Shown piece after piece: positions 3,912 to 59,310 of a stretch of 64,000 nt of DNA. The stretch lies in the NCBI RefSeq assembly GCF_024298765.1, contig NZ_CP101210.1; one strand, given 5' to 3'. How positions within the stretch are numbered: the stretch's first letter is position 1; each line of letters begins with the position of its first letter. The position numbers and the translations under genes were made by a program. Under the pieces are notes generated by a model. It saw only the letters and a list, made by a program, of their open reading frames with translations. It was not told the DNA's origin and did not search any database. This stretch comes from Escherichia coli (GTDB taxonomy: Bacteria; Pseudomonadota; Gammaproteobacteria; Enterobacterales; Enterobacteriaceae).

Positions 3912-5352
3912 TGTACCGTTGATTGCTGTTGTAATGGCTGGTGGTACGGGTAGCCGTCTTTGGCCCCTCTCAAGAGAGCACTATCCGAAGCAATTTCTGC
4001 AATTATCAGGTGAGAATACTTTATTACAGTCAACCTTATTACGACTATCCCCGCTTTCTTGCGAAACTCCATTAGTAATAACAAATGAGCAACATCGCTT
4101 TGTGGTTGCAGAACAATTACGTCAAATTGATCAGTTAAGAGATAATATTATTCTTGAGCCATGTGGAAGAAATACGGCTCCCGCCATAGCTCTTTCAGCA
4201 TTTACAGCTTTGAAGCGTAATGAACAACAGGATCCTATTTTGTTGATTCTCGCAGCTGACCATATTATAAGCAAAGCGGATGTTTTTTGTGACGCTATTC
4301 AAAAATCGAAAACTGTAGCTGAACAGGGGAATATTGTAACCTTTGGGATTATACCTGAATATGCGGAAACAGGTTATGGTTATATAAAAAAAGGAGATCC
4401 TTTTAAAATTTTACCAAATATTACTGATGATAAGTTTTATCATGTCCAACAATTTATTGAAAAACCTAACCATTCGACGGCAGAAGAGTATGTTTCCACA
4501 GGAGAATATCTCTGGAATAGTGGAATGTTTATGTTTAAAGCATCAGTATATTTAGAGGAATTGAAAAAGCACAGGCCTGATATATACGAAATCTGTGAGC
4601 AGACAGCTTCATTATCCTATAACGATCTTGATTTCATACGATTGCCTAAACATATTTTCCAAGATTGTCCGTCGGAATCAATTGATTTTGCGGTTATGGA
4701 AAAAACAAAAAATTGCATTGTTCGTCCAGTAGACATCGGGTGGAGTGATGTAGGCTCTTGGCATTCTTTGTGGGATATTAGTGATAAAACGCAGGATGGA
4801 GATGTCTGTAAAGGTGATATTCTAACTTATAACACTAAAAACAATTATATATATTGTGAATCAGCCCTAGTGGCTGCTGTAGGTGTAGAAGATATAGTTA
4901 TTGTTCAAACAAAAGATGCTATTCTCGTGTCCAAAAAAACTGAGGTTCAGGATGTAAAAAAAATAGTAGAAATGCTTAAGGAACATGAGCGCTCAGAGTA
5001 TATATCGCATCGAGAGGAGTTTCGGCCTTGGGGAAAATTTGATGCGATAGATCAGGGAGAACGATATAAAGTTAAAAAGATAGTTGTGAAACCCGGCGAA
5101 GGACTATCCTTACGAATGCACCATCATCGTTCTGAGCATTGGATTGTTCTTTCCGGCACAGCAAAAGTAACTTTAAACGATAAAACAGTATTGCTTGCTG
5201 CAAATGAATCAATCTACATTCCTCTAGGAGCAACGTATAGTCTTGAAAATCCAGGAATAATCCCTCTGAATCTTATTGAGGTTAGTTCAGGCGATTATTT
5301 AGGTGAGGATGATATTGTACGGCAAAAAGAACGCTACAGAATAGATGACTAA
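3895..5352 (+). CDS. manC: mannose-1-phosphate guanylyltransferase
   Basis: 485-aa ORF; N-terminal [17 protein letters not shown] nucleotidyltransferase motif; C-terminal cupin-like region; exact start uncertain (3895 or 3904). Confidence 0.9.
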
Positions 5353-5355
5353 TAT

Positions 5356-6735
5356 ATGAAAAAATTAACCTGCTTTAAAGCCTATGATATTCGCGGGAAA
5401 TTAGGTGAAGAACTGAATGAAGATATCGCCTGGCGCATTGGTCGCGCCTATGGCGAATTTCTCAAACCGAAAACCATTGTGTTAGGCGGTGATGTCCGCC
5501 TCACCAGCGAAACCTTAAAACTGGCGCTGGCAAAAGGTTTGCAGGATGCGGGCGTCGATGTGCTGGATATTGGTATGTCCGGCACCGAAGAGATCTATTT
5601 CGCCACGTTCCATCTCGGCGTGGATGGCGGCATTGAAGTTACCGCCAGTCATAATCCGATGGATTACAACGGCATGAAACTGGTGCGCGAAGGGGCTCGC
5701 CCGATCAGCGGCGATACCGGACTGCGCGATGTCCAGCGTCTGGCAGAAGCCAACGACTTTCCTCCCGTTGATGAAACCAAACGCGGTCGCTATCAGCAAA
5801 TCAACCTGCGTGACGCTTACGTTGATCACCTGTTCGGTTATATCAGTGTCAAAAACCTTACGCCGCTCAAGCTGGTGATTAACTCCGGGAACGGCGCGGC
5901 GGGTCCGGTGGTGGACGCCATTGAAGCCCGCTTTAAAGCCCTCGGCGCACCGGTGGAATTAATCAAAGTACACAACACGCCGGACGGCAATTTCCCCAAC
6001 GGTATTCCTAACCCGTTGCTGCCGGAATGCCGCGACGACACCCGTCATGCGGTCATCAAACACGGCGCGGATATGGGCATTGCCTTTGATGGCGATTTTG
6101 ACCGCTGTTTCCTGTTTGACGAAAAAGGGCAGTTTATCGAGGGCTACTACATTGTCGGCTTGCTGGCACAAGCGTTCCTCGAAAAAAATCCCGGCGCGAA
6201 GATCATCCACGATCCACGTCTCTCCTGGAACACCGTTGATGTGGTGACTGCCGCAGGCGGCACCCCGGTAATGTCGAAAACCGGACACGCCTTTATTAAA
6301 GAACGGATGCGCAAGGAAGACGCCATCTACGGTGGCGAAATGAGCGCCCACCATTACTTCCGTGATTTTGCTTACTGCGACAGCGGCATGATCCCGTGGC
6401 TGCTGGTCGCCGAACTGGTGTGTCTGAAAGGAAAAACGCTGGGCGAACTGGTGCGCGACCGGATGGCAGCATTTCCGGCAAGCGGTGAGATCAACAGCAA
6501 ACTGGCGGACCCCGTTGAGGCGATTAACCGCGTGGAACAGCATTTTAGCCGTGAGGCGCTGGCGGTGGATCGCACCGATGGCATCAGTATGACCTTTGCC
6601 GACTGGCGCTTTAACCTGCGCTCCTCCAACACCGAACCGGTGGTGCGCCTGAATGTGGAATCGCGCGGTAATATAGCATTAATGAATGAACAGGTTGAAT
6701 TTATTACAAAATTTTTAAACGGTGATGGTTTATGA
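5356..6735 (+). CDS. manB: phosphomannomutase
   Basis: 459 aa; phosphohexomutase active-site region TASHNP; follows manC. Confidence 0.9.
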
Positions 6736-41817: not shown

Positions 41818-42888
41818 TTATTTAATCCGGGCCATCGCGTTTCTCAGTGCCAAATCTGCCTCTTCCGTTATATCCAGGCTTTTCTGCAATACCGCCTCTG
41901 ACCGGGTCAGTGCCTGACGTGCTGCCAGCGGTTTCCGGATATGCTCCATCGCCAGCATCGTGTCTTCATAGCCCTGCTGACGCCAGGCGTCGGTATGTGC
42001 CGATGTAAAACTGAGCAGACCGCCGCTGTTGCCACCATCACCTGCATATTTCAGCCTTTTCCGGGGACGGATCTCAAGGATTGTGGTGTCCGGAAAAGCC
42101 TGGCGATCCCATAAAGAACCCTCACTCAGATGCGTCACAATCACCATATTGCATCCGGCATCGACCAGAGGCGTCACAGGGGTATTTCCCTGCATATTTC
42201 GCCATCCTCCCATACCACCATCACCGAACATTGTCCCCTGAACCTCACGGGGACGGAACAGCAGGGGCAGCGCGGCTGACGCAAGCAGAGCCTCTTTCTG
42301 CTGTCCGCGGGGCAGGCTCTGGATATGCTGAAAAACGGCGTTTTTCGTGGTTCCGACACCCAGTTCAGCACGAATGCAGTCAATAATATCCTGCATGCCC
42401 CCTTCTGTGGGGTACAGCGACACATACAGCGGTAGCCCGTCTGCCAGAGCATCAGTATCAAGATAATGATCCATCAGCGCTGTCAGGGGCTCATCTGACA
42501 ACAACGGCTGAGCCATCAGATTGTCAAACCCGTTGATTGTCGATATATGGCGAAGAAGCGTCGTAAGCAGTGCTCCTGCACGTCCGGGGATCTGGCAGAG
42601 GTTCATTGCCTGGAACAATTTTTTCAGCAATGAAAAGTAAACCAATCTGTTTACCGACAGCACCTGATTATTCCCCAGATGATCCCAGAGCGCCTCCAGG
42701 CGTACGGCAGCTTCTGACAGATCGGGAGAGGCCGCGATAATGGCACCATTGAATGCGCCAATGCTGGCCCCTGAAACCATGCTGATCTGTGTACCACACT
42801 CTGCCAGTGCCTTAACCACTCCCGCCTGATAAGCGCCCACCGCCCCGCCACCGGACAGCACCAGCCCCGTTTTCATTTCTGTACTCAT
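41818..42888 (-). CDS. patatin-like phospholipase
   Basis: 356 aa; oxyanion-hole SGGGAVGAYQAG, nucleophile elbow GASIG, catalytic Asp motif FGDGGM; start codon overlaps upstream gene stop. Confidence 0.85.
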   Translation of the reverse strand: MSTEMKTGLVLSGGGAVGAYQAGVVKALAECGTQISMVSGASIGAFNGAIIAASPDLSEAAVRLEALWDHLGNNQVLSVNRLVYFSLLKKLFQAMNLCQIPGRAGALLTTLLRHISTINGFDNLMAQPLLSDEPLTALMDHYLDTDALADGLPLYVSLYPTEGGMQDIIDCIRAELGVGTTKNAVFQHIQSLPRGQQKEALLASAALPLLFRPREVQGTMFGDGGMGGWRNMQGNTPVTPLVDAGCNMVIVTHLSEGSLWDRQAFPDTTILEIRPRKRLKYAGDGGNSGGLLSFTSAHTDAWRQQGYEDTMLAMEHIRKPLAARQALTRSEAVLQKSLDITEEADLALRNAMARIK

Positions 42889-43790
42889 GCAGCCCCCTTC
42901 TGAAATATTTCATCGACCATACTTTCAGAGAGGCGTTCTGCAGAGCAGAGGCGAGGCATGCGAACCGGTAAGTGTTCTGCAGCCTGCGTGGTTGACCAGA
43001 TCACCGGATGCTGCTCTTCACTGCACCAGTCTCCCAGCCAGTTAATCGCGTCATGCCACTCGTTATCTGCCTGCTCCCGGCCCTGACCACCAAGCCAGTC
43101 CAGAGTGTTCAGACGCACGGTTGCACTACCGCCACTCTCCTGTGCCATCTGCGTTAATGCTTTATGTCTGAGAATATCCAGTAGCTGGTTAACCTGGCCT
43201 GTTTCGCTCTGACGTATCACATCACCAAACGCGCCCCAGCGAAGCTCTTCAAGTGCCACATAACAACGTCCGGCAGGGGAAAATGACGCATATCGCCCGG
43301 CGCTCCACCATGAGAATATCTGCTCAAGATGTAACTGCGCCCGCTGAACCTGGTCAACACGGTGGAGTTTTTCTTCAAGATGATTCAGTTTATGGTGAAC
43401 CTGATCGGCCAGGGTGAGTAACTGCTCCCGCGTATCTGCGGAATAATGCGCCAGCCTGGCTGTATCACTGACCAGTGAACTGACCCTGTCGTTTACCCGG
43501 GTAATCGCGTAGTTTGTGGTGGCAAGTGACGTTGTCAGCTCCGTCAGCCAGCGCAGGGATGCCTCAACGCCCTGTGCAAGCGAAGCATTGATGGCATTCT
43601 GCCGTGCAGCACCTTCGCCGCTCAGCCCCTCTTTTAACCGCCGGAAGAACGTGCGCTCTCCGGCCGTGCGGATATGCTCCTGTGCAACATCGATACCGTT
43701 TGCGAAATCAACCACAAATTTTTCAGGAAGACAGGTGAGTACCTGACATACCCGGTTATCAGCAATTTGTTGAATAAATGGTGAAGTCAC
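42885..43790 (-). CDS. coiled-coil protein, possible YjcZ-like partner of dynamin-like GTPase
   Basis: 301 aa, helical/coiled-coil character, no enzymatic motif seen; overlapping stop/start junctions with both flanking genes. Confidence 0.5.
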   Translation of the reverse strand: MTSPFIQQIADNRVCQVLTCLPEKFVVDFANGIDVAQEHIRTAGERTFFRRLKEGLSGEGAARQNAINASLAQGVEASLRWLTELTTSLATTNYAITRVNDRVSSLVSDTARLAHYSADTREQLLTLADQVHHKLNHLEEKLHRVDQVQRAQLHLEQIFSWWSAGRYASFSPAGRCYVALEELRWGAFGDVIRQSETGQVNQLLDILRHKALTQMAQESGGSATVRLNTLDWLGGQGREQADNEWHDAINWLGDWCSEEQHPVIWSTTQAAEHLPVRMPRLCSAERLSESMVDEIFQKGAA

Positions 43791-46183
43791 AGCATTGTCT
43801 CCAGTTCTTCCCTTAACGCCTTACTGTCAGTAATGAGCTCAGGAACTCTTTCATTTAACGCCTGAAGACGCCCGGTCAGCCGTTCCTGCGCCTGCTGATC
43901 GCGTTTATGATCTTCAGAGCTCTGAATCAGCGTGTTACGCAGCTGTTCAACTTTCTCCCTGAATGTACAGAAAAAGGCATCGATTTCCTGGCGGACGGGC
44001 TGGTTAATATCCTGCTCAATGGATGCCTGCAGCTCCCCGAAATATGCCCGGGTCAGTGACATCACCTCCTTCCTGACCTTGTTGATATTGATAACACTGC
44101 GGCTCACATCCACGTTATAGTTTTCCCATCCCCATTCTTTGGTGCCAATCCATCCACAAATCTTTCCAATGAAGCTATCCTTCCGACGGCGACGGGTGAC
44201 TGTCTCCGTTCTTTCCTCCATAAGCGCACTCAGATTTGTTTTTACCGCGAGCCGGGTCTGTAACTGACTGACTGCCGGAAAACTGATTTTTACAGTGAAG
44301 CCCTCATCCGCCAGGCGGGCATTGATACGTCCGGCGATGTTTTCTGTCGCATACAGGGCCGTACCACGAAAACCTGTTTCAATCCCGCTGACGATTTTCT
44401 CCAGCTCAGGCCGGAACTGTGCCTCAGCCTCACTGTGCAGGCTGGTCACGGTCGATTCGATTTGCGTCATCAGTTCAAGGGCTTCCCTGCGATTATTTAA
44501 TGTTATCTCGGGGTTTTCCGGATCAAAGACTCGTATCCTGTCATCCTCCCAGCCCGGGTTATTGATACCGGACCATCGATAAATCTTTCCCCATAATCCG
44601 GACCGGGACCTTCGTTGTTCTGTGTCTTCTTCCTCCAGCATTTGCTGTTCTTTGCGTTTACCGGTTCTGAAATAGTCATTCAGTTCCTCTTCCAGTGAGG
44701 TGCAGACCCCCGTGAGTAATTCCCGGGTTCTGGCATCGATCTCCTCCATGGCCATTCTGACATCAGCGGTCACCTGCTCCTGACAGTCCGCGATTTCCCG
44801 GATATCCGCAAGCAGGCTGGTGATATGCGCCTGCAGTGACTGAATGCTTTGCTGTAGCCCCTGATGGCGTAATGACAGATATTCGCTGACATTTTCCGCA
44901 TTCTGCATCAGTTTTGCGGCGGCAGAATCAACCGCCAGTGCCGCCGCTCTGGAATGGGAACTCTGTATGACTTCCGTTATCAGTTGATCGATAAGTGAGC
45001 CTTCCCACAGGTCTGTTGCCCCTTCAGTTGCCAGTTCGCTGTCTTTACAGACGTAATCTTTTTTCATGCGACCGAAAGCTTCCCTGACAAAATCATCGAC
45101 CCAGGCTTCATCAACAGGAAGGGTTCCGTTTTTCCGTAACTCATGAAGCGCACGGTTAGCCAGGTATGCCTGGCGTGAGGATCCGGGATAAACGCGGGAG
45201 GCGGGCAGCACATCGCTGTTCAGCATTGCCGGAACTTTCTGGCGTACGGCATCTGCCCCATCGCCATTGCGGTCTTTCTCATCAAATTTATTGACCAGCA
45301 CAAACAGGCGGCCAACTGATACGTCCGCAATGGCATTAAGCTCTTTACGGACGTCTTCATCCGCTTTTGAGTTCATCTGGGTGTAATCCATCACTGCCAG
45401 AACCGCAGAAGCTTTCTGCAGTTGATCCCGCATCATCACTTCCATCTGCGGCTGGCCGGCTTCATTAGGGCCGGGGGTATCCAGCAGTGTGAGTGTTCCC
45501 TGGCATGCATCCATCCCCACCAGATGGCTGAATTCCACGTCGATCACCGGCAGTTTCTGCACTTCTGCGTATTCATCAAAAGGAAACTCACTCCCCATTG
45601 CCGCAGCAAGACGAACCAGATCGTTTAACGATGCCAGTCCGGTAAAGATTTCCTCCTCCCCGTGGTATTCATTTTTGAGCCAGCCATCATCCGTCAGAAT
45701 ATCCAGCAGTTCACGGGTATCCCCGGTTTGCAGCAGGGTCTGTGCGACTTGCTGTCCTGCCGGGGTGGCGAGTTTTTCCTGCAGTGTGATTAATAAATTG
45801 CGGACAGGCTGAATATGTTCCAGATGGAGGACCGGCTCAGTTTTTCCGGGAACGTGGCGGATGAGTGTCGGTACAGAGGTCATGGGGCGGTTACGGTTAG
45901 GCAGAATTTCCTGCCCCACAATGGCGTTGATGGTGGTTGATTTGCCTGCTTTCATCGTGCCGACAACAGCCAGCACCATCTCCCTGCGGGCGGTTTTGAT
46001 TTGTTCGCCCTCCAGCTCCTCAATTCTTTTCAGCGCTTTCCGTTTATCAAAAAGCAGCCCGTTTTCGTTCTTACTGTCAGATAACACATCCGGCTCATCA
46101 ACCATTTGCCGGAGCAGATTGATATTCAGTTGCAAAAGCCGGTCGGCTTCATCACAAAGCAGGGCGATGTTCTTTTCGTGCAT
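43787..46183 (-). CDS. bacterial dynamin-like GTPase (CrfC/YjdA/LeoA-like)
   Basis: 798 aa; G1 GTMKAGKST, G3 DTPG, G4 NKFD in N-terminal third; long helical stalk C-terminally; RBS aggaagg upstream. Confidence 0.8.
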   Translation of the reverse strand: MHEKNIALLCDEADRLLQLNINLLRQMVDEPDVLSDSKNENGLLFDKRKALKRIEELEGEQIKTARREMVLAVVGTMKAGKSTTINAIVGQEILPNRNRPMTSVPTLIRHVPGKTEPVLHLEHIQPVRNLLITLQEKLATPAGQQVAQTLLQTGDTRELLDILTDDGWLKNEYHGEEEIFTGLASLNDLVRLAAAMGSEFPFDEYAEVQKLPVIDVEFSHLVGMDACQGTLTLLDTPGPNEAGQPQMEVMMRDQLQKASAVLAVMDYTQMNSKADEDVRKELNAIADVSVGRLFVLVNKFDEKDRNGDGADAVRQKVPAMLNSDVLPASRVYPGSSRQAYLANRALHELRKNGTLPVDEAWVDDFVREAFGRMKKDYVCKDSELATEGATDLWEGSLIDQLITEVIQSSHSRAAALAVDSAAAKLMQNAENVSEYLSLRHQGLQQSIQSLQAHITSLLADIREIADCQEQVTADVRMAMEEIDARTRELLTGVCTSLEEELNDYFRTGKRKEQQMLEEEDTEQRRSRSGLWGKIYRWSGINNPGWEDDRIRVFDPENPEITLNNRREALELMTQIESTVTSLHSEAEAQFRPELEKIVSGIETGFRGTALYATENIAGRINARLADEGFTVKISFPAVSQLQTRLAVKTNLSALMEERTETVTRRRRKDSFIGKICGWIGTKEWGWENYNVDVSRSVININKVRKEVMSLTRAYFGELQASIEQDINQPVRQEIDAFFCTFREKVEQLRNTLIQSSEDHKRDQQAQERLTGRLQALNERVPELITDSKALREELETML

Positions 46184-46400: not shown

Positions 46401-47312
46401 TCAGAAGAAAATCCAGTTCCATACCACGCGGGCAACAGAGACCACCGAGTCACGGACGGCGCGCAGAACCGTGCGTGCAACAGAGGCAATGCAGACGCTC
46501 TCCGCCGTGTCAAATATCCGGTCCACCGCACCGGTAAACTGTTCACGGGCCTGAGACCGGACAGACTCCGTGCGCAGCTCGTCCTGCAGGCGGGTCATCA
46601 GGGGACTGGCGGCATGGTCGGGAAGTGCTGTCATGAGCGCACTGACCAGCGTATCCAGTTCCCAGCCGGTGCGGGCCGATACGGCAACAACCCGATGTAC
46701 GGGCCGGAACAGACGGAATACCGCCTCCGTTTTTTCGCGAATGTTCTGTGCCTGTGCGGGAGAAGGCTGAATACCGGCCATATCCCATTCATGGCAGGGC
46801 TCCGTTTTATCGGCCTGCATCACCACAAACAGTACCCGCTGATGTCCCCGGTGCAGGATGTGTCGCCAGAAATACTCATCCACAGACAGGGCACGGTCAT
46901 CGGCTTTAATCAGCCACAGTACCAGGTCCAGTTCGAGCAGAATGTCACGGTACAGGGCTTCATACTCTGCATCCCTGTCCCGGCTCTCGCCCACCCCGGG
47001 CAGGTCAGTGATAACCATGCTGTGACCATGGCCATTCAGACGGAAGCGCTGCACTTCCCGGGGGCCGGCGTGAACATCACTGACCGGGGTGACCTCCCCC
47101 TGAAACAGCGCATTACAGAGTGAGGATTTACCGGCCCCGCTTTTACCCATAATGCCAGGCACGGGTTCGTGACTGGTGAGTTTGCGCAGATGTTCCAGGA
47201 TGTGACGGGAAAGTGAGTAAGGCAGGGAGGAGAGCGGTTTTTCAATTGCCTCAATGGCATCAGACGGATTCATACATGTATTCCCGGTGAAAAAAGACAA
47301 AACCCCGCGCAC
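46401..47312 (-). CDS. YeeP/YfjP/YkfA-family GTPase, apparently intact
   Basis: P-loop GIMGKSGAGKSSL, DLPG, VMQADK motifs; possible start at internal MNPSDAIE (47273). Confidence 0.8.
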   Translation of the reverse strand: MRGVLSFFTGNTCMNPSDAIEAIEKPLSSLPYSLSRHILEHLRKLTSHEPVPGIMGKSGAGKSSLCNALFQGEVTPVSDVHAGPREVQRFRLNGHGHSMVITDLPGVGESRDRDAEYEALYRDILLELDLVLWLIKADDRALSVDEYFWRHILHRGHQRVLFVVMQADKTEPCHEWDMAGIQPSPAQAQNIREKTEAVFRLFRPVHRVVAVSARTGWELDTLVSALMTALPDHAASPLMTRLQDELRTESVRSQAREQFTGAVDRIFDTAESVCIASVARTVLRAVRDSVVSVARVVWNWIFF

Positions 47313-50852: not shown

Positions 50853-52388
50853 ATGAACGACACCTCTTCTGACGACATCCTTCTGCTGAAACAGCGCCTG
50901 GCCGAACAGGAAGCGTTGATCCACGCCCTGCAGGAAAAGCTGAGCAACCGGGAACGCGAAATAGACCATCTGCAGGCGCAACTGGATAAGCTGCGCCGGA
51001 TGAACTTCGGCAGTCGTTCCGAAAAGGTATCCCGCCGTATCGCGCAAATGGAAGCTGACCTGAACCTGCTGCAGCAGGAAAGCGATACGCTGACCGGCCG
51101 GGTGGATGACCCGGCAGTGCAGCGCCCGCTGCGTCAGACCCGCACCCGCAAACCGTTCCCTGAGTCACTCCCACGGGATGAGAAGCGGCTGCTGCCGACT
51201 GAGCCGTGTTGCCCGGAGTGCGGTGGTTCGCTGAGTTACCTGGGTGAGGATGCCGCCGAACAGCTGGAGCTGATGCGCAGCGCCTTCCGGGTTATCCGGA
51301 CAGTCCGTGAAAAGCATGCCTGCCGTCGGTGCGATCGCATCGTTCAGGCCCCGGCTCCTTCGCGCCCCATCGAACGGGGGATCGCCGGACCGGGGCTGCT
51401 GGCCCGAGTGCTGACCTCAAAGTATGCAGAGCACACACCGCTGTATCGCCAGTCGGAGATCTATGCCCGCCAGGGTGTAGTGTTGAGTCGTTCTGTACTG
51501 TCGGGCTGGGTGGATGCGTGTTGTCGTCTGCTGGCACCGCTGGATGAAGCCCTTCAGCACTATGTCCTGACCGACGGCAAACTCCATGCTGACGATACGC
51601 CTGTCCCGGTGCTGTTGCCAGGCAATAAGAAGACGAAGACCGGGCGCTTATGGACGTACGTTCGAGACGACCGCAACGCCGGATCAGCGCTGGCCCCCGC
51701 AGTGTGGTTCGCTTACAGCCCGGACAGAAAAGGTATCCACCCTCAGACCCATCTTGCAGGCTTCAGTGGCGTACTGCAGGCTGATGCCTACGCCGGGTTC
51801 AACGAGCTCTACCGCGACGGCCATATAAAGGAAGCCGCGTGCTGGGCCCATGCCCGCCGAAAAATCCACGATGTTCACGTCCGTACCCCGTCAGCCCTGA
51901 CGGAGGAGGCGCTGAAACGGATCGGCGAGCTGTATGCCATCGAGTCGGAGCTCAGAGGTAAAAGAGCAGAGGAACGGCAGGCAGTCCGGCACCAAAAAGT
52001 GCTGCCGCTGCTGGCGTCACTGGAGGGGTGGCTGCGGGAGAAACAGAAAACCCTCTCAAGGCACTCAGAACTGGCGAAGGCGTTCGGGTATGCGCTGAAC
52101 CAGTGGCCGGCGCTGACCCGCTATGCAGAAGATGGCTGGGTGGAGGTGGATAATAACATTGCCGAAAACGCCCTACGACTGGTCAGTCTGGGGAGAAAAA
52201 ACTGGCTGTTCTTCGGCTCGGATCATGGTGGTGAGCGCGGTGCGTCACTGTACAGTCTTATCGGGACGTGCAAATTAAACGGCGTGGATCCGGAACGCTA
52301 TCTGCATCATGTACTTGATGTCATCGCCGACTGGCCTGTGAACCGGGTGGGTGCTCTGCTCCCGTGGCGGGTTACTCTGCCCGCCTGA
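50853..52388 (+). CDS. IS66 family transposase (orf3/TnpC)
   Basis: 511 aa; N-terminal leucine zipper, CPECGG...CRRCD zinc motif, DDE region. Confidence 0.9.
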   Translation: MNDTSSDDILLLKQRLAEQEALIHALQEKLSNREREIDHLQAQLDKLRRMNFGSRSEKVSRRIAQMEADLNLLQQESDTLTGRVDDPAVQRPLRQTRTRKPFPESLPRDEKRLLPTEPCCPECGGSLSYLGEDAAEQLELMRSAFRVIRTVREKHACRRCDRIVQAPAPSRPIERGIAGPGLLARVLTSKYAEHTPLYRQSEIYARQGVVLSRSVLSGWVDACCRLLAPLDEALQHYVLTDGKLHADDTPVPVLLPGNKKTKTGRLWTYVRDDRNAGSALAPAVWFAYSPDRKGIHPQTHLAGFSGVLQADAYAGFNELYRDGHIKEAACWAHARRKIHDVHVRTPSALTEEALKRIGELYAIESELRGKRAEERQAVRHQKVLPLLASLEGWLREKQKTLSRHSELAKAFGYALNQWPALTRYAEDGWVEVDNNIAENALRLVSLGRKNWLFFGSDHGGERGASLYSLIGTCKLNGVDPERYLHHVLDVIADWPVNRVGALLPWRVTLPA

Positions 52389-52437: not shown

Positions 52438-53346
52438 GCCAGGCATATGTCGATGTAATCCATAAACGATTTCAGCTTACCCCTTTTGTGGCCAGTCTTT
52501 CTGGCTGGCGGTTCAGGGGATGTTTTCTGGTTATCGTGTACCACAAAGCAGGGATATTGCCCCGATAGTCACATTTCAGATTGATCGCGGTCTGAAGATG
52601 TGGCACTGAGGTAACGTGCTGGTGTCACTGGTATTGCTGAAGTTATGGTTTTTCGGGGTCAGGTGAGCCTGTTGTGTGTATGCTTTTTGTTCAGGTCAGA
52701 GGGGGACTGTGTGGACAGCGGCTTTTGTCTCCGGGCATTCACGCCTGAACGATGAATGCGATTTTCAGCAATATTTGTCTTTGTGACACTCTCTGGTTGA
52801 GAAGCTAATGCGCGCCCCTGTTTCCACAGAGAATGAGGCTTGCCATCAGCCGAAACATCAGTATTCCACGCCATACAGACGGCGCCTGACCATGTGCTGA
52901 TGCAGGTAAAATGTTTCACTACAACTGTTCGGGTTGCTATGCAACGAAACAGCGATTCTCACGATCTTTAACTGCAACGTTTTTCCGCCTGAAAGCTGAC
53001 TGCCTCCTGCTGAGGTGGGAGGCTATGATTCAGTGCGTTTATAGTCTCCGGGGTATGCATGTACCGGAGCATACCATTTCTGGTGGATAACAAGCCGGCA
53101 CATTCAGACTGCAGTGAAGATGGAGGCACCTGGTTGTGAAGAACGTTTCTGCCCGTGGCTGCTTCGCATCATCAATGGTATTCATACCCGCTCAGAAATG
53201 ACCGGGTGCTGAAGCCCTCCGTTATCGCGCAGTATAATGACGTATATGATCTGTGGACGAGTGAGCGGCGTGCCTGATGTACGCCGCTATTACTGTATTT
53301 TACCACAGGGCTGGTTTTCTGCTGCCAGCCCTGTGGTTCTCAGACA

Positions 53347-53964
53347 TCAACTGTGAGCGGCATCAACCGATGTACGGTATGCCATAAGCACGTACTGATC
53401 CATCAGATTTGTCAGTGGTTCACTCTGACCCTGACGTGCAATGATCCATTGCTCCAGATCTTTTTCTGATTTGTGTTTCAGGTTTTTCGTCCAGTCGTCA
53501 AGGCTGTTTCCGGTCATTAAGTCAAGCCAGCAGAGCCAGACCAGTTTGAGACGTAACTCCGTGCCGCCAAACTGACGGAAGAGGCTGATCAGTTTGTTTG
53601 CCAGAGAATGTTGCTTCAGGCGCTCACATTCAGACAGCAGGATCCCTTCCAGCATCGGATGATGAACCAGCAGGTGTTCGCTGGTGCATAAATTCACCAC
53701 CAGATCATCATCCAGGGACGGGGAGCTCCGTTTGTCCGGACCATAAATCAGCCGGTGCAGACTCTGGGGAACGATGGCAATCTCCGGTTTTTCGCCATTG
53801 AATGACACCCACCCGGGCGTCAGATTATGGAAATAGTAGATATTCGGATGACACACGCCCCATGATACGGCGTGCCGGGTGAAGCCGGTCAGCCATTTCT
53901 GGTAGTTTTCATGGAGCAGCTCGTAACGGGTCTGATACTGTTGTTTCATTTTCATATTCCTCAC
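53347..53964 (-). CDS. hypothetical prophage-island protein
   Basis: 205-aa ORF co-oriented with and downstream of alpA; no motif recognised. Confidence 0.4.
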   Translation of the reverse strand: MRNMKMKQQYQTRYELLHENYQKWLTGFTRHAVSWGVCHPNIYYFHNLTPGWVSFNGEKPEIAIVPQSLHRLIYGPDKRSSPSLDDDLVVNLCTSEHLLVHHPMLEGILLSECERLKQHSLANKLISLFRQFGGTELRLKLVWLCWLDLMTGNSLDDWTKNLKHKSEKDLEQWIIARQGQSEPLTNLMDQYVLMAYRTSVDAAHS

Positions 53965-54042
53965 GGGGGATAACAGGCAGCAGAGCGCCGCCGGCAGGCC
54001 GGAGATTGCGTCTGCTGTGGGCGAAGGGTTAGTGGTTAAAAA

Positions 54043-54249
54043 TTACAGACGGGACTGTGCAATACGCGCCTGCAGCCAGGCTTCCACTTCACTTTTCAGC
54101 CAGCGGGAGCTGCGCCCCATTTTGATGGGCGCAGGAAAGCCCCCATCTTTGATGAGTTTGTCAAACCACTTATCGGTAAGGCCGGTCAGTTGAGTGATAA
54201 ACGCCATGTCGACCATCTGGTCATCCATCAGCGAAACTGGGGTAGCCAT
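54043..54249 (-). CDS. alpA: AlpA-family prophage transcriptional regulator
   Basis: 68 aa from MATPVSLMDDQMVDMAFITQLTGLTDKWFDKLIKDGGFPAPIKMGRSSRWLKSEVEAWL; start trimmed from ORF 54447. Confidence 0.8.
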   Translation of the reverse strand: MATPVSLMDDQMVDMAFITQLTGLTDKWFDKLIKDGGFPAPIKMGRSSRWLKSEVEAWLQARIAQSRL

Positions 54250-54413
54250 GAGAATGTTCCTCCGGATGTTGTTAAACCAGCCGGTGTGGTCATGAAAACA
54301 GCGCGCCACCTTCACCGGCATAACAACCGGGGAGAAACGTAAAAAATAATCGGGAATGTGGCTGTCCGGAGATAAACGGGGGGATTGCGATGGCAGAGCC
54401 GTAGCGGAATCCC

Positions 54414-54425
54414 GGGGGGGGGGGG
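54414..54425. repeat. G12 homopolymer tract
   Basis: 12 consecutive G read directly, about 165 bp upstream of alpA start. Confidence 0.9.
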
Positions 54426-55376
54426 TTGCGAAAAGATGCTTCCGCACGCACGCGCGATAAAGAGGGGATAGTTTTCGTGAGGACAGGGAGAGAAGCAGGC
54501 GTTCTGATAATTGCAGAGTTGTTTTCGGAGGTGGTTACAGTGAGTCAGCCCGTTCCTGGCGAGCAGGAGACTGATATCACCGATGGGATAAGGTTGTCTG
54601 ATTGGTATTATAAATATAAGAAGTCATCAGAGAGTAACGTAAAGGATTTGCCAGAATAACCTAAGAGAGTAAATCTCTCCGGTAACAGAGCGCTGTGAAG
54701 CATTCTGTATCAGAGTGCAGATACATGAACGCTGATGCGTAAAATCAGCAGTGACACGCCAGCTCCCCCTATGCCCATTCCTGTATAAGACATGAACTGA
54801 GTGTATTAATGCTTCTGCCCTGAGACTGAGCCGGTGAGTGAGGGGCTGAGAAATCCCTCTTGACACAGCTCTAACCAGAAATACTTCCCCGGTTGTTGCG
54901 GTGCGTCCGGATCCCCGATAACGGAACACTAAGGCTGTATTGCGGGACACCGGGTAAGTAGCAGCCCGTAAGGCGTTCTGTCAACGCCAGAAAAAATGAT
55001 TTCCCACACGCGTTATAGACTCACTCCTGTGGACCTGGAAGCCCGTAACTCTGCGGTTGCCCACTGACTGACGGAACTGACCGCAAATTTTACGAGTGCG
55101 TGCTGGGCTTCAGTCTGGTCACCTGAGCGTTCGGTAACGGAGGCGCGGGCGGTAATAGGCTGATTTTCAGGTATTACCGGCTTACAGCGTGTGGTTGATA
55201 TTGAGGGGCTGTGAGTTTCGCGTATTTGTCAGAAACCCAGACGAGTTTTCCTGTATGGGACGAAATAAGGCAGCGGCAATACCTGGAAAAATTTAATATG
55301 GTATGAAGGAGAACCTGTCGGTTACGCTTAATATACCCGGTACACTGTCAGCTCAGGGGATACATGAACCGTTATC

Positions 55377-55580
55377 TCACCAGCTACACAGTATATACAC
55401 ACTGACGCTGACAGTAGTCAGCAGGACCACAATAATCAGTGCCAGCAGTATGGTAACGATACGGTCTGTATTCCGGTAATAGCCGAAGGGGTCGACAGAA
55501 CCACAATACGGGCAACACACTGTATTATGAGTAATCGCGTTTCCACAGTCCCTGCACTTCTTTTTGCGTATCACCATCAC
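55377..55580 (-). CDS. small zinc-ribbon membrane protein
   Basis: 67 aa; CRDCG...CCPYCG followed by C-terminal TM helix IVTILLALIIVVLLTTVSVSVYIL. Confidence 0.45.
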   Translation of the reverse strand: MMVIRKKKCRDCGNAITHNTVCCPYCGSVDPFGYYRNTDRIVTILLALIIVVLLTTVSVSVYILCSW

Positions 55581-55740
55581 TCCCTCCTCACAGCCTTACC
55601 CGTAACCGGTTTTTTACATTAAAAAAACAACGCTGAAAATTCAACCGTCAGTCCGGAGACGACCGTTCGGGTTATCACAGAGTGCCTGAGACAGTGTCCT
55701 GCCGGAGGTCACTTCAGGGACTCTGCGCATTTTTTACGAC

Positions 55741-56346
55741 GTGGCTATTCCGTATGAACCATACGGAGATTTAACCATGACCTACAAATACAACCCCTTC
55801 TGGCAGCAACGTATTCGTGAGACGGTGCGGCACGCACTGAATGTTCATCCCCGCCTGACGGCATTGCGGGTTGACCTGCGTTTCCCGGATGTACCGGCAG
55901 CAACGGACGCAGCTGTGATATCCCGCTTCATCAATGCCCTGAAAGCCCGAATCGACGCTTACCAGAAACGTAAGCATCGGGAAGGTAAACGCGTGCATCC
56001 CACAACCCTGCATTACGTCTGGGCCCGGGAGTTTGGGGAGTGCAAAGGTAAAAAACACTATCACCTGATGCTGCTGGTTAACCGGGATACCTGGTGTCGT
56101 GCCGGTGATTACCGTGCTCCGGGATCACTGGCCGGGATGATTAAACAGGCGTGGTGCAGTGCCCTGGGAGTGGATGTCGGGTGCCATGCCACGCTGGTGC
56201 ATTTCCCGGCCTGGCCGGCGGTGTGGCTGGAACGCGATGATGACACTGGCTTTCAGCAGGTGCTGGAACGTGCTGACTATCTGGCGAAGGAACATACCAA
56301 AGCTCACTGCACCGGTGAGCGCAATTTTGGCTGTAGCCGGAGTTGA
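55741..56346 (+). CDS. hypothetical prophage protein (possibly YfjJ/YagK-like)
   Basis: 201-aa ORF; His/Cys-rich (HYHLMLLVNRD...); family assignment from memory only. Confidence 0.4.
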   Translation: MAIPYEPYGDLTMTYKYNPFWQQRIRETVRHALNVHPRLTALRVDLRFPDVPAATDAAVISRFINALKARIDAYQKRKHREGKRVHPTTLHYVWAREFGECKGKKHYHLMLLVNRDTWCRAGDYRAPGSLAGMIKQAWCSALGVDVGCHATLVHFPAWPAVWLERDDDTGFQQVLERADYLAKEHTKAHCTGERNFGCSRS

Positions 56347-56599
56347 GCACGACTGGCGCGCCAATACCCGGCAAACCAAAAGTATGGGTTGTTGTCTGGC
56401 GGCAACGATGTATCCACTCGCCCACTGACTGTTTTTTACGTCAGTGTTCCATTGTGTGACAACCACAGTGCTGTAACAGCAACCAGCCTGCTTTACCCAA
56501 ACTCCAGTCCAGATTTTAACTGAACCGCCATTCACACCCTGACCACGCTGCCCGTACCGGGACGGCTGTTGCCTGCGTGTCGTCTGGCGGCTGAGGAAT

Positions 56600-57007
56600 A
56601 TGACTATGTACGCAAAATCCTTTATCGCTCTTGATGGCAACGGACGTCTGACGGGCGCCCGTACTGCACAGGCCGCACCTTATGCTAACTACACCTGCCA
56701 CTTGTGTGGCAGTGCACTCAGATACCATCCGCAATACGACACTGAACTTCCCTGGTTTGAACACACTGACGACAGGCTGACAGAGCACGGTCAACAGTGC
56801 CCTTATGTCAGGCCGGAGCGCAGAGAAATACAGTTGATTAAACGTCTGCAGCAATTCGTACCGGATGCCTTACCCGTGGTGCGTAAAGCCAGCTGGCACT
56901 GCAGACAATGTCACCACGATTATTATGGGGAGCGGTACTGCACACACTGCCAGACCGGAGGATTCAGTATTCCCCGGACAACTCAGGAGGAAATATGCGA
57001 ATTCTGA
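56600..57007 (+). CDS. CoiA-like zinc-finger domain protein, paralog 1
   Basis: 135 aa; CHLCGSAL...PWFEH and WHCRQCHH...CTHCQTGG motifs. Confidence 0.55.
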   Translation: MTMYAKSFIALDGNGRLTGARTAQAAPYANYTCHLCGSALRYHPQYDTELPWFEHTDDRLTEHGQQCPYVRPERREIQLIKRLQQFVPDALPVVRKASWHCRQCHHDYYGERYCTHCQTGGFSIPRTTQEEICEF

Positions 57008-57402
57008 ACTGTTATATGGCGAATGACAGCAAAGGCCATTTTGTTACGGCGAAAGAAGCAGCGAAGCACAACCGCCAGGACGTTTTGTGCTGTGTGTCCT
57101 GTGGATGCCCGTTAACACTTCAGCGGGGCAATGACGGACAACCACCGTGGTTTGAACATGACCAGATGACTGTCGCTGAGAAAATCCTGCTGCGATGCAC
57201 CTGGCTTGACCCGGCAGAGAAAGAGGCCCGTCGTTTGCATCTGCAGGGTATGACGGTTCCGGATTATACGGTGAAGGTGAGAAAGTGGTTTTGTGTGATG
57301 TGTGACGAAAATTATGAGGGGGAAAAGTGCTGCCCGAGTTGTGGTACCGGGGTATACAGCAGGGAGGGGGGGCAGGAGGGCAACTGGAAGGATAGGAACT
57401 GA
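56995..57402 (+). CDS. CoiA-like zinc-finger domain protein, paralog 2
   Basis: 135 aa from ATG 56995 preceded by aggagg; CVSCGCPL...PWFEH and WFCVMCDE...CPSCGTGV motifs; overlaps paralog 1 by 13 nt. Confidence 0.55.
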   Translation: MRILNCYMANDSKGHFVTAKEAAKHNRQDVLCCVSCGCPLTLQRGNDGQPPWFEHDQMTVAEKILLRCTWLDPAEKEARRLHLQGMTVPDYTVKVRKWFCVMCDENYEGEKCCPSCGTGVYSREGGQEGNWKDRN

Positions 57403-57685
57403 GCGGTTCAGTCGCGGAAATCAGTTGCAGAGCTGTAATGATATCTCCGGGAGTGCTGCGTTGGTAGGGGCATCCCGGGATAGAGAAATTTTAGCACTTT
57501 GCCCTGAATGATTGTAGACGTCCCGAGTACTCGTACCGGTCTGAGTTATTACAGTTAGATATTCACTTTTTCTCCCGCATACTTCACATCTGTCAACGAC
57601 GGATGAAAAGTGGTTCTTCCGCAACCTGGGTGGAAGAAAATGGATGAAACTTTCTGGCGAACAAGGATCTAAGCTGTTTTAAGTT

Positions 57686-59310
57686 ATGGGCAACGCAATG
57701 CACTCTCTTAAGACACTTCTACAGTTACCTTGCGGATGGCGATGCAGTCGACAAATTATTAGCTCTGACGGTATAACCCTCCATCTCCACGGAAAACGCA
57801 AAACAGCACAATGTCCTGAATGCTTTAAGCGTAGCGACTCTGTTCATAGTTGTCGTCGGCGCCGGATACAGCATCTACCCTGCTCAGGGCAGACGCTATG
57901 GCTTGTATTTTCCGTCCGCCACTGGTACTGCCGTAACCCGGCTTGTTCACGTAAAATTTTTGCCGAGTCGCTTGCTCCCTTCGCCAGTTCACACCAGCAG
58001 TCTTCACAGGCGTTACAAAATTAACAACGTCAACTGGGATTAATAGCTGGAGGTGAGGCTGGAAAACGGGCTGCAACGGCAGTGGGTCTCCGTTGCAGTG
58101 CTGATACTCTTCTTCGCAGGCTTATCAATACCCCGGAGACGAAACAGTCAGGCGCGCCTCATGTCGGTATTGATGAGTGGGCGTGGCATCGGGGCCACTG
58201 CTGCGGTATGTTAATAGTCAATCCTGATACTCACCGTCCCCTCGTCCTGCTTCCCGGCCGTGATCAGCGTACGCTGGCGACCTGGTTCAGAAAATATCCG
58301 GAAATACAGGTTGTCTCGCGTGATCGCAGTGGAGTCTATGCGACAGCAGCACGTGAAGGTGCACCTCAGGCCAGACAGGTGGCCGATCGATGGCACCTGC
58401 TAAAAAATATTGGTGATGAGCCTGAACGAATGATGTACAGACATATGCCTCTGATACGTCTTGTTGTCAGAGAGTTATCACTGAAGAAATCACCTGAGCC
58501 AGAAATATCTGTGCCTGTAGCATCGCTCCGTCGTCTGGAACGCCTTAAACAGCACATCCGCAAAAAACGGCATCAGCGTTGGACAGAGGTTATGGCCCTG
58601 CATAACAAGGGATGTAGTTTCAGGGAAATATCCCGTATTACAGGCCTGTCGCGAGTGACAGTCAGTCGCTGGGTGAGTTCAGGAACATTCCCTGAAATGT
58701 CAACCAGGCCTCCAAAGCGAGGGCTTCTGGACCCATGGAGGGAGTGGTTAAAAGAGCAACGAGAATGTGGTAATTATAACTCCGGCCGGATATGGCGGGA
58801 AATGGTGGCCAGGGGGGTTACAGGCAGTGAAACCATCGTCAGGGATGCTGTTGCCAAATGGCATAAAGGCTGGATCCCACCGGTTACTACTGCCGCAAGA
58901 CTTCCTTCAGTGTCACGGGTAAGCCGCTGGTTGATGCCCTGGAGAATAATCAGGGGTGAAGAAAATTATGCTTTCCGATTTATTAGTCTGATGTGTGAAA
59001 AAGAACCGGAGTTGAAAATAGCGCAGCAACTGGTACTCGAGTTCTACCGTATTCTGAAAACCTAAAATAAATCACAGCTAAGCAGCTGGTTCACTCGGGT
59101 CCACGAAAGCGGCTCAGCAGAACTTCGGTGCGTAGCTGCGGGGATGGAAGCTGATGCTGCGGCTATATGTGAGGCAATCAGCAGTCGCTGGAGTACTGGT
59201 GTTGTCGAAGGTCATGTAAATCGCCTGAAGGTGCTGATACGCCAGATGTATGGTCGAGCCGGACTTGAACTACTTAGGCGGAGGGTAATGAGTCCACTGG
59301 CATGAAAATC
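57686..59310 (+). mobile_element. ISL3-family transposase gene, disrupted (at least three frames)
   Basis: N-terminal zinc-ribbon ORF 57686-58024, DDE-like ORF 58082-59065 (GIDEWAWHRGH..., DRWHLLKN), C-terminal ...WSTGVVEGHVNRLKVLIRQMYGRAGLELLRRRVM in a third frame. Confidence 0.6.

Follow-up and report, generated by a model that had tools for sequence, protein, structure and literature searches.

A small zinc-ribbon protein with a predicted C-terminal membrane anchor encoded by CP4-type islands of Escherichia coli, and its distant relatives in conjugative plasmids

The 64,000-nucleotide (nt) stretch of Escherichia coli DNA analyzed here (contig NZ_CP101210.1; referred to throughout as the window) harbors, on its minus strand at positions 55377 to 55577, a small open reading frame (ORF) which is very probably a true protein-coding gene belonging to CP4-type integrative islands, the predicted architecture of its product, a zinc-ribbon head followed by a C-terminal transmembrane (TM) helix, being held to be real with the same high confidence. 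This product of 66 amino acids (aa) is tentatively proposed to act as a membrane-tethered zinc-ribbon binding module which retains a cytoplasmic partner at the inner membrane, a reading to which we assign a probability of approximately 0.4. Within this reading, the topology, the zinc binding, the logic of an anchor joined to a binding head, and the identity of the partner are the elements that we infer.

The ORF extends from an ATG start codon to a TGA stop codon at positions 55379 to 55377, and its product is 100% identical to that of the coding sequence (CDS) annotated by PGAP (WP_001297900.1), the PGAP model likewise using the ATG and specifying 66 aa. Residue and codon numbers given below are counted from this ATG. 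A GTG at positions 55580 to 55578 represents an alternative start which would produce a protein of 67 aa, and it is in this form that an earlier note, made from the sequence of the window, had described a 67-aa ORF at positions 55377 to 55580 with two CxxC pairs followed by a hydrophobic helix, a description which was borne out. Three in-frame starts are in fact stacked at this location (GTG at 55580 to 55578, ATG at 55577 to 55575, and GTG at 55574 to 55572), an arrangement which may provide start-codon redundancy. Read on the minus strand, the ORF at positions 55377 to 55580 specifies (M)MVIRKKKCRDCGNAITHNTVCCPYCGSVDPFGYYRNTDRIVTILLALIIVVLLTTVSVSVYILCSW, the product comprising MVIRKKKCRDCGNAITHNTVCCPYCGSVDPFGYYRNTDR followed by a hydrophobic helix of 24 to 27 residues. 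A Shine-Dalgarno sequence, AGGAGG (positions 55583 to 55588, minus strand), is situated 5 nt upstream of the ATG and is retained in the related island loci L005 and L007. In loci L003 and L004, the corresponding position reads GGAGAGGGAG, which is purine-rich, and the ATG is replaced by ATC (L003 positions 5001 to 5003; L004 positions 1500 to 1502), the adjoining in-frame GTG being the likely start.

The predicted Cys4 zinc-ribbon core occupies codons 8 to 25 (C8-R-D-C11 ... C21-C22-P-Y-C25; positions 55503 to 55556, minus strand), in which the CxxC pairs C8-x2-C11 and C22-x2-C25 are separated by 10 residues and C21 represents an extra cysteine. Across 12 family members, the putative zinc ligands C8, C22, and C25 do not vary, and C11 shows at least 90% conservation. 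The core is followed by a juxtamembrane motif, D-P-F-G-Y-Y-R-N-T-D-R (codons 29 to 39; positions 55461 to 55493, minus strand), of which G32, Y33, Y34, R35, T37, D38, and R39 are invariant among the same members, and by the C-terminal TM anchor (codons 40 to 63; positions 55389 to 55460, minus strand), beyond which only one to three uncharged residues remain. The 19-residue Kyte-Doolittle mean peaks at 2.99 (residues 40 to 58), and the AlphaFold model places a helix at residues 34 to 65 with a predicted local distance difference test (pLDDT) score of approximately 91. Seven lysine or arginine residues precede the helix as opposed to three aspartates (net charge of +4), and the sequence thus displays the features of a tail-anchored protein, namely, a single C-terminal hydrophobic helix, the absence of a signal peptide, and a positive N-terminal side. 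The window contains 310 ORFs of 50 aa or more, so that the length of the small ORF alone is unremarkable, but it is the only one of them to pair a CxxC-x6-20-CxxC pattern with a TM-grade segment; of 100 shuffled 64-kb windows, only 2 yielded any ORF combining the zinc-ribbon pattern with a TM segment. The earlier structural proposal, in which a small protein carries a zinc ribbon and is anchored by a C-terminal TM helix, is supported by its sequence and hydropathy, by the helix in the AlphaFold model, and by the pattern of conservation.

Selection on the ORF was assessed by comparing diverged copies from islands of E. coli and from Salmonella (loci L003 to L008, L015, and L016). Changes within the head (codons 1 to 39) were mostly synonymous, with a ratio of nonsynonymous to synonymous polymorphism (pN/pS) of 0.16 to 0.39 and Fisher p values from 0.02 down to 6e-8, and the variable sites were distributed 11/12/26 over the three codon positions, representing a third-position excess. 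The TM part (codons 40 to 63) exhibits 54 to 65% DNA identity between island alleles and constitutes the fastest-evolving part of the protein (nonsynonymous-to-synonymous substitution ratio, dN/dS, of up to 1.65), and yet it contains no stop codon and no insertion or deletion (indel) ahead of the last two or three codons, its length being kept to within 2 codons in either direction. Its hydrophobicity is also retained, an outcome which a simulation of neutral divergence achieved in 0.2 to 0.8% of trials (p 0.002 to 0.008), and its variable sites fall 19/9/16 over the codon positions, position 2, which sets hydrophobicity, being the least variable. This pattern of a constrained head and a hydrophobic tail argues for a translated protein in which the soluble head is constrained and the helix is constrained mainly for hydrophobicity. 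Homology between island paralogues ends at the stop codon in three of the four compared (L005, L007, and L016), and the DNA 3′ of the stop codon is indel-rich and unalignable between islands; in L003 and in the fragments L014 and L015, homology already ends at the boundary between head and helix. The conservation in homologous islands to which the earlier note had tied its proposal was thus confirmed, the ORF occupying an unchanged position in diverged islands of E. coli and Salmonella and being subject to coding-type selection.

The ORF is divergent from, and separated by 199 bp from, a gene of the YagK/YfjJ family (189 aa; positions 55777 to 56346, plus strand; Pfam YagK_YfjJ_C, 1.1e-47) which PGAP assigns to the “inovirus Gp2 family” and which is present in every island copy examined. 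Because the adjoining intergenic region is extremely conserved and nucleotide conservation declines with distance (mean pairwise identities of 91.2% for the intergenic region versus 88.5% for the Gp2-like CDS and 84.4% for codons 1 to 39 of the ORF), it could be argued that the ORF is nonfunctional and survives through its overlap or abutment with the conserved regulatory sequences of the divergent Gp2-like operon. We regard this explanation as highly improbable, since conserved regulatory DNA would account neither for the predominance of synonymous changes and the third-position excess in codons 1 to 39 nor for the preservation of frame, length, and hydrophobicity in the diverged 3′ third; moreover, the four zinc ligands and the strong ribosome-binding site are kept, and independent plasmid relatives (described below) display the same architecture under selection.

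Other readings of the same DNA were considered and rejected. An overlapping ORF on the plus strand (positions 55303 to 55479; 58 aa) is situated largely in DNA that cannot be aligned between islands, and an antisense promoter within the ORF (positions 55408 to 55436, plus strand) is probably a chance occurrence, as the TM-coding part which contains it is poorly conserved and the site itself is changed in L003. An RNA element in place of a protein was likewise dismissed, Rfam having returned no match in positions 53000 to 58000 at an E value of ≤1. A long-range pairing between the 5′ untranslated region (positions 55596 to 55604) and codons 21 to 24 (positions 55507 to 55515) was also observed, one arm of which changes without compensation in L003.

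DNA of the small ORF was identified in 3472 of 5426 complete E. coli genomes (about two thirds), almost always on the chromosome, with a median of two and a maximum of six copies and some 6355 copies in E. coli altogether. Strains with an identical copy include ATCC 25922 and ABU 83972. The exact protein is present on at least 1000 contigs and carries the RefSeq accession WP_001297900.1 and the UniProt entry A0A024L0K2_ECOLX, which is identical over its 66 aa; under these accessions, thousands of E. coli genomes carry it in the same slot, beside an inovirus Gp2 family gene, with automatic annotation only. Its database names are “hypothetical protein,” “zinc-ribbon domain-containing protein,” and “predicted nucleic acid-binding Zn ribbon protein.” The ORF is, therefore, already annotated but uncharacterized, and the earlier suggestion that such a protein is rarely annotated did not hold, the exact protein being annotated by RefSeq in thousands of genomes; among 40 evenly sampled genomes, the best copy lacked a CDS annotation in 5. 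An exhaustive profile search of 1.84 billion representatives returned only 25 matches at an E value of ≤1e-10, from which it is concluded that the family is narrow, and the members retrieved were enterobacterial-type variants of the same protein, many of them frameshifted. In strain 98206 (L027 positions 301 to 503), a 1-nt deletion in an AAAAA run (window positions 55560 to 55565) inactivates the ORF, and several database variants are frameshifted from the same lysine codons, such that the A5 run may be a slippage hot spot.

In K-12, tblastn revealed no copy next to yfjJ (CP4-57) or yagK (CP4-6), an absence beside the two genes examined which may explain why the protein does not appear in K-12 small-protein surveys, and no copy was present next to the gene for a 243-aa Gp2-like protein in pathogenicity island (PAI) II of UTI89. 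A scan of species-representative genomes in which the Gp2-like neighbor served as the query returned only two short, contaminant-like contigs. Viral sequences yielded two IMG/VR loci, and phage GenBank records yielded one 20-residue fragment. With one phage fragment and two IMG/VR contigs on the viral side, as opposed to a CP4-type island context and relatives in conjugative plasmids, the phage derivation that the earlier note had entertained is not supported.

In the favored mechanism, residues 1 to 39 would constitute a basic Cys4 zinc ribbon located in the cytoplasm (N-in), and residues 40 to 63 would form a single, tail-anchored membrane helix, with almost nothing reaching the periplasm. 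The N-in topology is proposed because a net charge of +4 precedes the helix and none follows it, and because a Cys4 site needs a reducing compartment. Since the helix appears to require only hydrophobicity, with one small/polar face near its outer end, it is most likely an anchor, and the head is presumed to be the working part because selection is concentrated on it and on the juxtamembrane GYYRNTDR, the helix varying among hydrophobic residues. The head would bind a protein or nucleic acid partner at the inner membrane, which would most likely belong to the element's own replication, mobilization, or regulation machinery, components of the HUH-type YagK/YfjJ and zinc-ribbon operon or the DNA of the element being the likeliest candidates. 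This choice of partner is based on the fixed position of the ORF, on the highly conserved 199-bp control region which it shares with the Gp2-like gene and the two zinc-ribbon genes, and on the occurrence of its relatives in transfer regions.

The helix displays two further properties, in that its alleles among island copies fall into three discrete types and its outer half keeps a small/polar face composed of T54/55, S/G/A57, an invariant S59, and Y/F61. Discrete helix alleles are expected if the helix tracks different partners, and the protein might accordingly be envisaged as a small protein that modulates a membrane complex of the host or of the element, comparable to MgrB, AcrZ, or SafA, whose helix docks onto a transporter, a sensor kinase, or a component of a type IV secretion system (T4SS). 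The conserved small/polar face with its aromatic residue at position 61 and the embedding of the relatives in T4SS gene clusters would be compatible with such a function, which we nevertheless deem quite unlikely given that the strongest constraint is on the head rather than on the helix, that no membrane protein is found among the conserved island neighbors, and that no T4SS of its own is encoded in the island stretches examined.

The same small/polar face, together with the basic N terminus and the single helix of a small protein borne on a mobile element, could equally be ascribed to a small membrane toxin or to an abortive infection or exclusion effector, in which the helix would oligomerize and damage or block the inner membrane and the zinc ribbon would serve as a regulatory or gating appendage. 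The type I toxins and small membrane proteins of E. coli, such as TisB, HokB, IbsC, and ZorO, are likewise small, single-helix proteins which are often carried by mobile elements; however, proteins of this type have an RNA antitoxin and few residues outside the helix, type I toxins usually being shorter than 60 aa (PMC12648545), whereas the island protein, at 66 aa, possesses a 39-residue head which is its best-conserved part, while its helix evolves fastest. No candidate for an antisense RNA or antitoxin was detected, Rfam being without a match and the sole antisense promoter-like site (positions 55408 to 55436) being poorly conserved, and PADLOC returned no defense match for either the small ORF or its Gp2-like neighbor. 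The repeated loss of the ORF through frameshifts is compatible with a costly gene, and the island is rich in toxin-antitoxin and defense-like genes, but the ORF is intact where its convergent Hha-like neighbor has decayed. On balance, a toxin, as the earlier note had also suggested, or an effector is considered unlikely, and the membrane-tethered binding module remains the preferred reading.

Distant relatives of this proposed module, recovered from the weak tail of the profile search, share the pattern C-x2-C-x10-C-x2-C-x-S-x-DPFG-x2-R-x2-DR followed by a TM helix, the core DPFG-x2-R-x2-DR being common to the small ORF and most of the plasmid relatives. Pairwise blastp between the window protein and a plasmid relative gave 34% identity with an E value of 9e-13 (head identity of 34 to 41%), and hhalign gave a probability of 99.2%, a figure which is partly circular, as the second alignment was chosen from the matches of the first. 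Every relative with enough sequence context is located inside a conjugative transfer region and on the strand opposite the tra genes. The ORFs concerned are found at positions 3998 to 4219 of L021 (NZ_LR882059.1, between traN and trbC), 6001 to 6219 of L018, 6001 to 6237 of L019, and 3002 to 3181 of L024, the transfer regions being of the F type (L018 and L021), the I type (L019/L020), and the P type (L024). By tblastn, the F-type form was detected in approximately 114 plasmid records (41% identity), and 112 of the 122 plasmid records with any match were typed as conjugative. The plasmid ORFs are under purifying selection (pN/pS of 0.19, p 8e-13). Among the matches listed, the plasmid ORF is missing from the PLSDB gene table.

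These relatives, of which the 72-aa P0124 is an example and one of which is named “DUF2116 family Zn-ribbon domain-containing protein” (WP_409975801.1), are thus also borne by mobile elements. They differ from the island protein in possessing a tail of 10 to 20 residues after the helix and in lacking C21 and H17, and they sit inside tra operons, whereas the island ORF is located beside a Gp2-like gene. In F- and I-type contexts, the plasmid ORF is accompanied by a convergent gene which overlaps its 3′ end and encodes a protein of 126 to 148 aa with the motif ASCQGHGFP and no Pfam match (L021 positions 4208 to 4588, L018 positions 6205 to 6588, and L019 positions 6118 to 6564, minus strand). 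As this protein is 57% identical between F- and I-type backbones, the pair appears to move as a cassette. A broader interpretation would place the island ORF as one branch of an unrecognized superfamily of small membrane-anchored zinc-ribbon proteins of mobile elements whose action at the inner membrane would concern DNA transfer or conflict between elements, for example, through modulation of the T4SS or coupling step, exclusion, or the tethering of an HUH nickase-DNA complex, the plasmid branch being encoded against the tra genes, often unannotated, and forming a two-gene cassette in F- and I-type backbones. In its entirety, this interpretation is speculative and, in our estimation, improbable.

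With regard to known families, the Pfam zinc ribbons Zn_ribbon_3 (PF13248), DZR (PF12773), zf-ChsH2 (PF12172), and UPF0547 (PF10571), as well as DUF2116 (PF09889), have in common with the island protein two CxxC knuckles approximately 10 residues apart. The window protein produced no match to DUF2116 at an E value of ≤1; a plasmid relative scored 18.4 bits, below the threshold of 26.8 bits, and aligned over both the zinc ribbon and the helix (positions 5 to 52 of 59), which suggests that DUF2116 may have the same head-plus-helix layout. In PHROG families 38187, 10292, and 14275, which comprise uncharacterized phage proteins, the N-terminal ~50 residues align with the zinc ribbon and helix (E values of 1.5e-5 to 1.3e-3), but these profiles span 136 to 178 positions and include a large additional C-terminal region. 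The top Foldseek matches in the PDB were zinc ribbons (Nop10, DUF35/ChsH2, RanBP2 type, and reverse gyrase) with root mean square deviations of 1 to 1.4 Å over 22 to 25 residues, all at E values above 1, and a sequence search of the PDB returned nothing below an E value of 0.1. Membrane-bound zinc-binding anti-sigma factors bear a likeness to the proposed module which is conceptual only. Zinc-binding anti-sigma (ZAS) domains adopt an H-x3-C-x2-C helical fold and not a zinc ribbon.

A further point of comparison is DanI, a 69-aa four-cysteine protein encoded by PAI II of uropathogenic E. coli, which antagonizes the LytTR regulator DanR and is a soluble zinc finger protein likened by its authors to DksA and YacG (bioRxiv 10.1101/2025.06.10.658900). 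The paper describing DanI was the only one in which a mention of DUF2116 was encountered. As a homologue, DanI was rejected, since its translated gene, compared by reading and not by alignment, displays neither a hydrophobic stretch nor a resemblance to the island protein, and it is retained as a conceptual analogue only. It does resemble the latter in being a small, island-encoded, four-cysteine zinc protein, one which binds and antagonizes a regulator, and it therefore provides a precedent for small island zinc proteins acting through the binding of a regulator.

Several observations weigh against the proposal of a membrane-tethered zinc-ribbon binding module. The scores against zinc-ribbon families are below the gathering thresholds of Pfam (zf-ChsH2, 16.2 versus 23.2 bits; Zn_ribbon_3, 13.6 versus 27 bits; DZR, 14.2 versus 27.3 bits) and below the threshold of the NCBIfam rubrerythrin-like model (16.4 versus 32 bits), and the zinc-ribbon head of the AlphaFold model is of low confidence (pLDDT of approximately 60), with short strands. 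The small/polar face of the helix could mediate helix-helix contacts, be it oligomerization or the binding of a membrane partner, which would make the helix more than an anchor, and the adjoining control region could contribute to the high nucleotide conservation of the 5′ half. Frameshifts occur in some copies, one of which has lost a single nucleotide from the A5 run at codons 5 and 6, and the decay of such copies implies that the gene is dispensable. The promoter scan found no consensus promoter for the small ORF itself, the 126- to 148-aa partner of the plasmid ORFs occurs neither in the window nor in any of the island loci, and no paper was found for the accession or the peptide string of WP_001297900.1.

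The window corresponds to a CP4-44-type island beside yeeA/tmaR, the genes of which include cbtA/cbeA, yeeS, an antirestriction gene, a DUF932 gene, a patatin/RdcB/dynamin cluster, a GTPase gene, and insertion sequences. The earlier note had described the ORF as isolated in noncoding island DNA, a view with which this context disagrees, as the divergent Gp2-like gene is 199 bp away in a conserved module and the downstream DNA holds the remnant of an Hha pseudogene. The Gp2-like protein contains an HUH-type H-Y-H motif (positions 56056 to 56064; H-Y-H-L-M-L-L) and a weak REP_ORF2-G2P match, which suggests that it may be a rolling-circle nickase or relaxase-type enzyme; the papers found on YfjJ/YagK contain no functional work on the family. 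Two genes specifying DUF7828 and Zn_ribbon_11 domains according to Pfam and the annotation (positions 56600 to 57007 and 56995 to 57402, plus strand) follow the Gp2-like gene, representing tandem paralogues which overlap by 13 nt and bear a faint likeness to the CoiA N-terminal domain, and this pair is conserved in all related islands. On the other side of the small ORF, and convergent with it, lies the remnant of an Hha-family gene (positions 54981 to 55121, plus strand; tblastn, 56% identity over 48 aa, E value of 7e-10), the slot of which is filled by intact Hha-family genes in L003, L007, L015, and L016. The remnant falls within the approximately 930 bp which separate the small ORF from an alpA-family ORF (ending, in its longest form, at position 54447); in intact islands, the small ORF is succeeded by the convergent Hha-family gene, then alpA, and then a gene encoding a protein of 190 to 200 aa. 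The resulting order, in which the Gp2-like gene and the two DUF7828-zinc ribbon genes diverge from the small ORF and the latter converges on the Hha-like gene, with alpA beyond, is conserved in diverged E. coli and Salmonella loci. The small ORF is placed divergently from the 189-aa YagK_YfjJ_C gene and upstream of an Hha-like gene and alpA in L001, L003, L004, L005, L007, L010, and L016.

The 199-bp control region shared with the Gp2-like gene (positions 55578 to 55776) has an AT-rich center and contains a promoter-like site for the plus-strand Gp2-like gene at positions 55613 to 55640 according to the promoter scan. It further harbors a 12-nt inverted repeat (positions 55678 to 55689 and 55714 to 55725) and a perfect 8-bp palindrome, TCCGTATG-AAC-CATACGGA (positions 55749 to 55767, with arms at 55749 to 55756 and 55760 to 55767), situated close upstream of the start of the Gp2-like gene. 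Either element could function as an operator or mark an origin or nick site.

Elsewhere in the window, genes encoding a patatin-like phospholipase and RdcB-family and dynamin-family proteins form one overlapping string (positions 41818 to 46183, minus strand) adjoined by the GTPase gene (positions 46401 to 47312, minus strand), the whole having the appearance of a defense-type cargo module. The module containing the small ORF is flanked by an IS66-family transposase gene (positions 50853 to 52388, plus strand) and an ISL3-family transposase gene with an internal stop (positions 57686 to 59065, plus strand), and in another strain (L001), a further IS66 insertion separates the small ORF from alpA.

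The small ORF is widespread and clearly under selection, and it displays an unexpected link to ORFs encoded opposite the tra genes of conjugative plasmids. It forms part of an uncharacterized core module of CP4-type islands, comprising alpA, an Hha-like gene, the ORF itself, the HUH-type YagK/YfjJ gene, and two zinc-ribbon genes, and such islands carry virulence, toxin-antitoxin, and defense cargo. In a review of small membrane proteins in bacteria published in 2025, the word zinc does not occur (PMC12648545). Should the ORF prove dispensable and without a phenotype, it would merely be another hypothetical island gene; if, on the other hand, its product truly is a membrane-tethered binding module, it would offer a simple handle on the role of the core module and might link the islands to conjugative plasmids.

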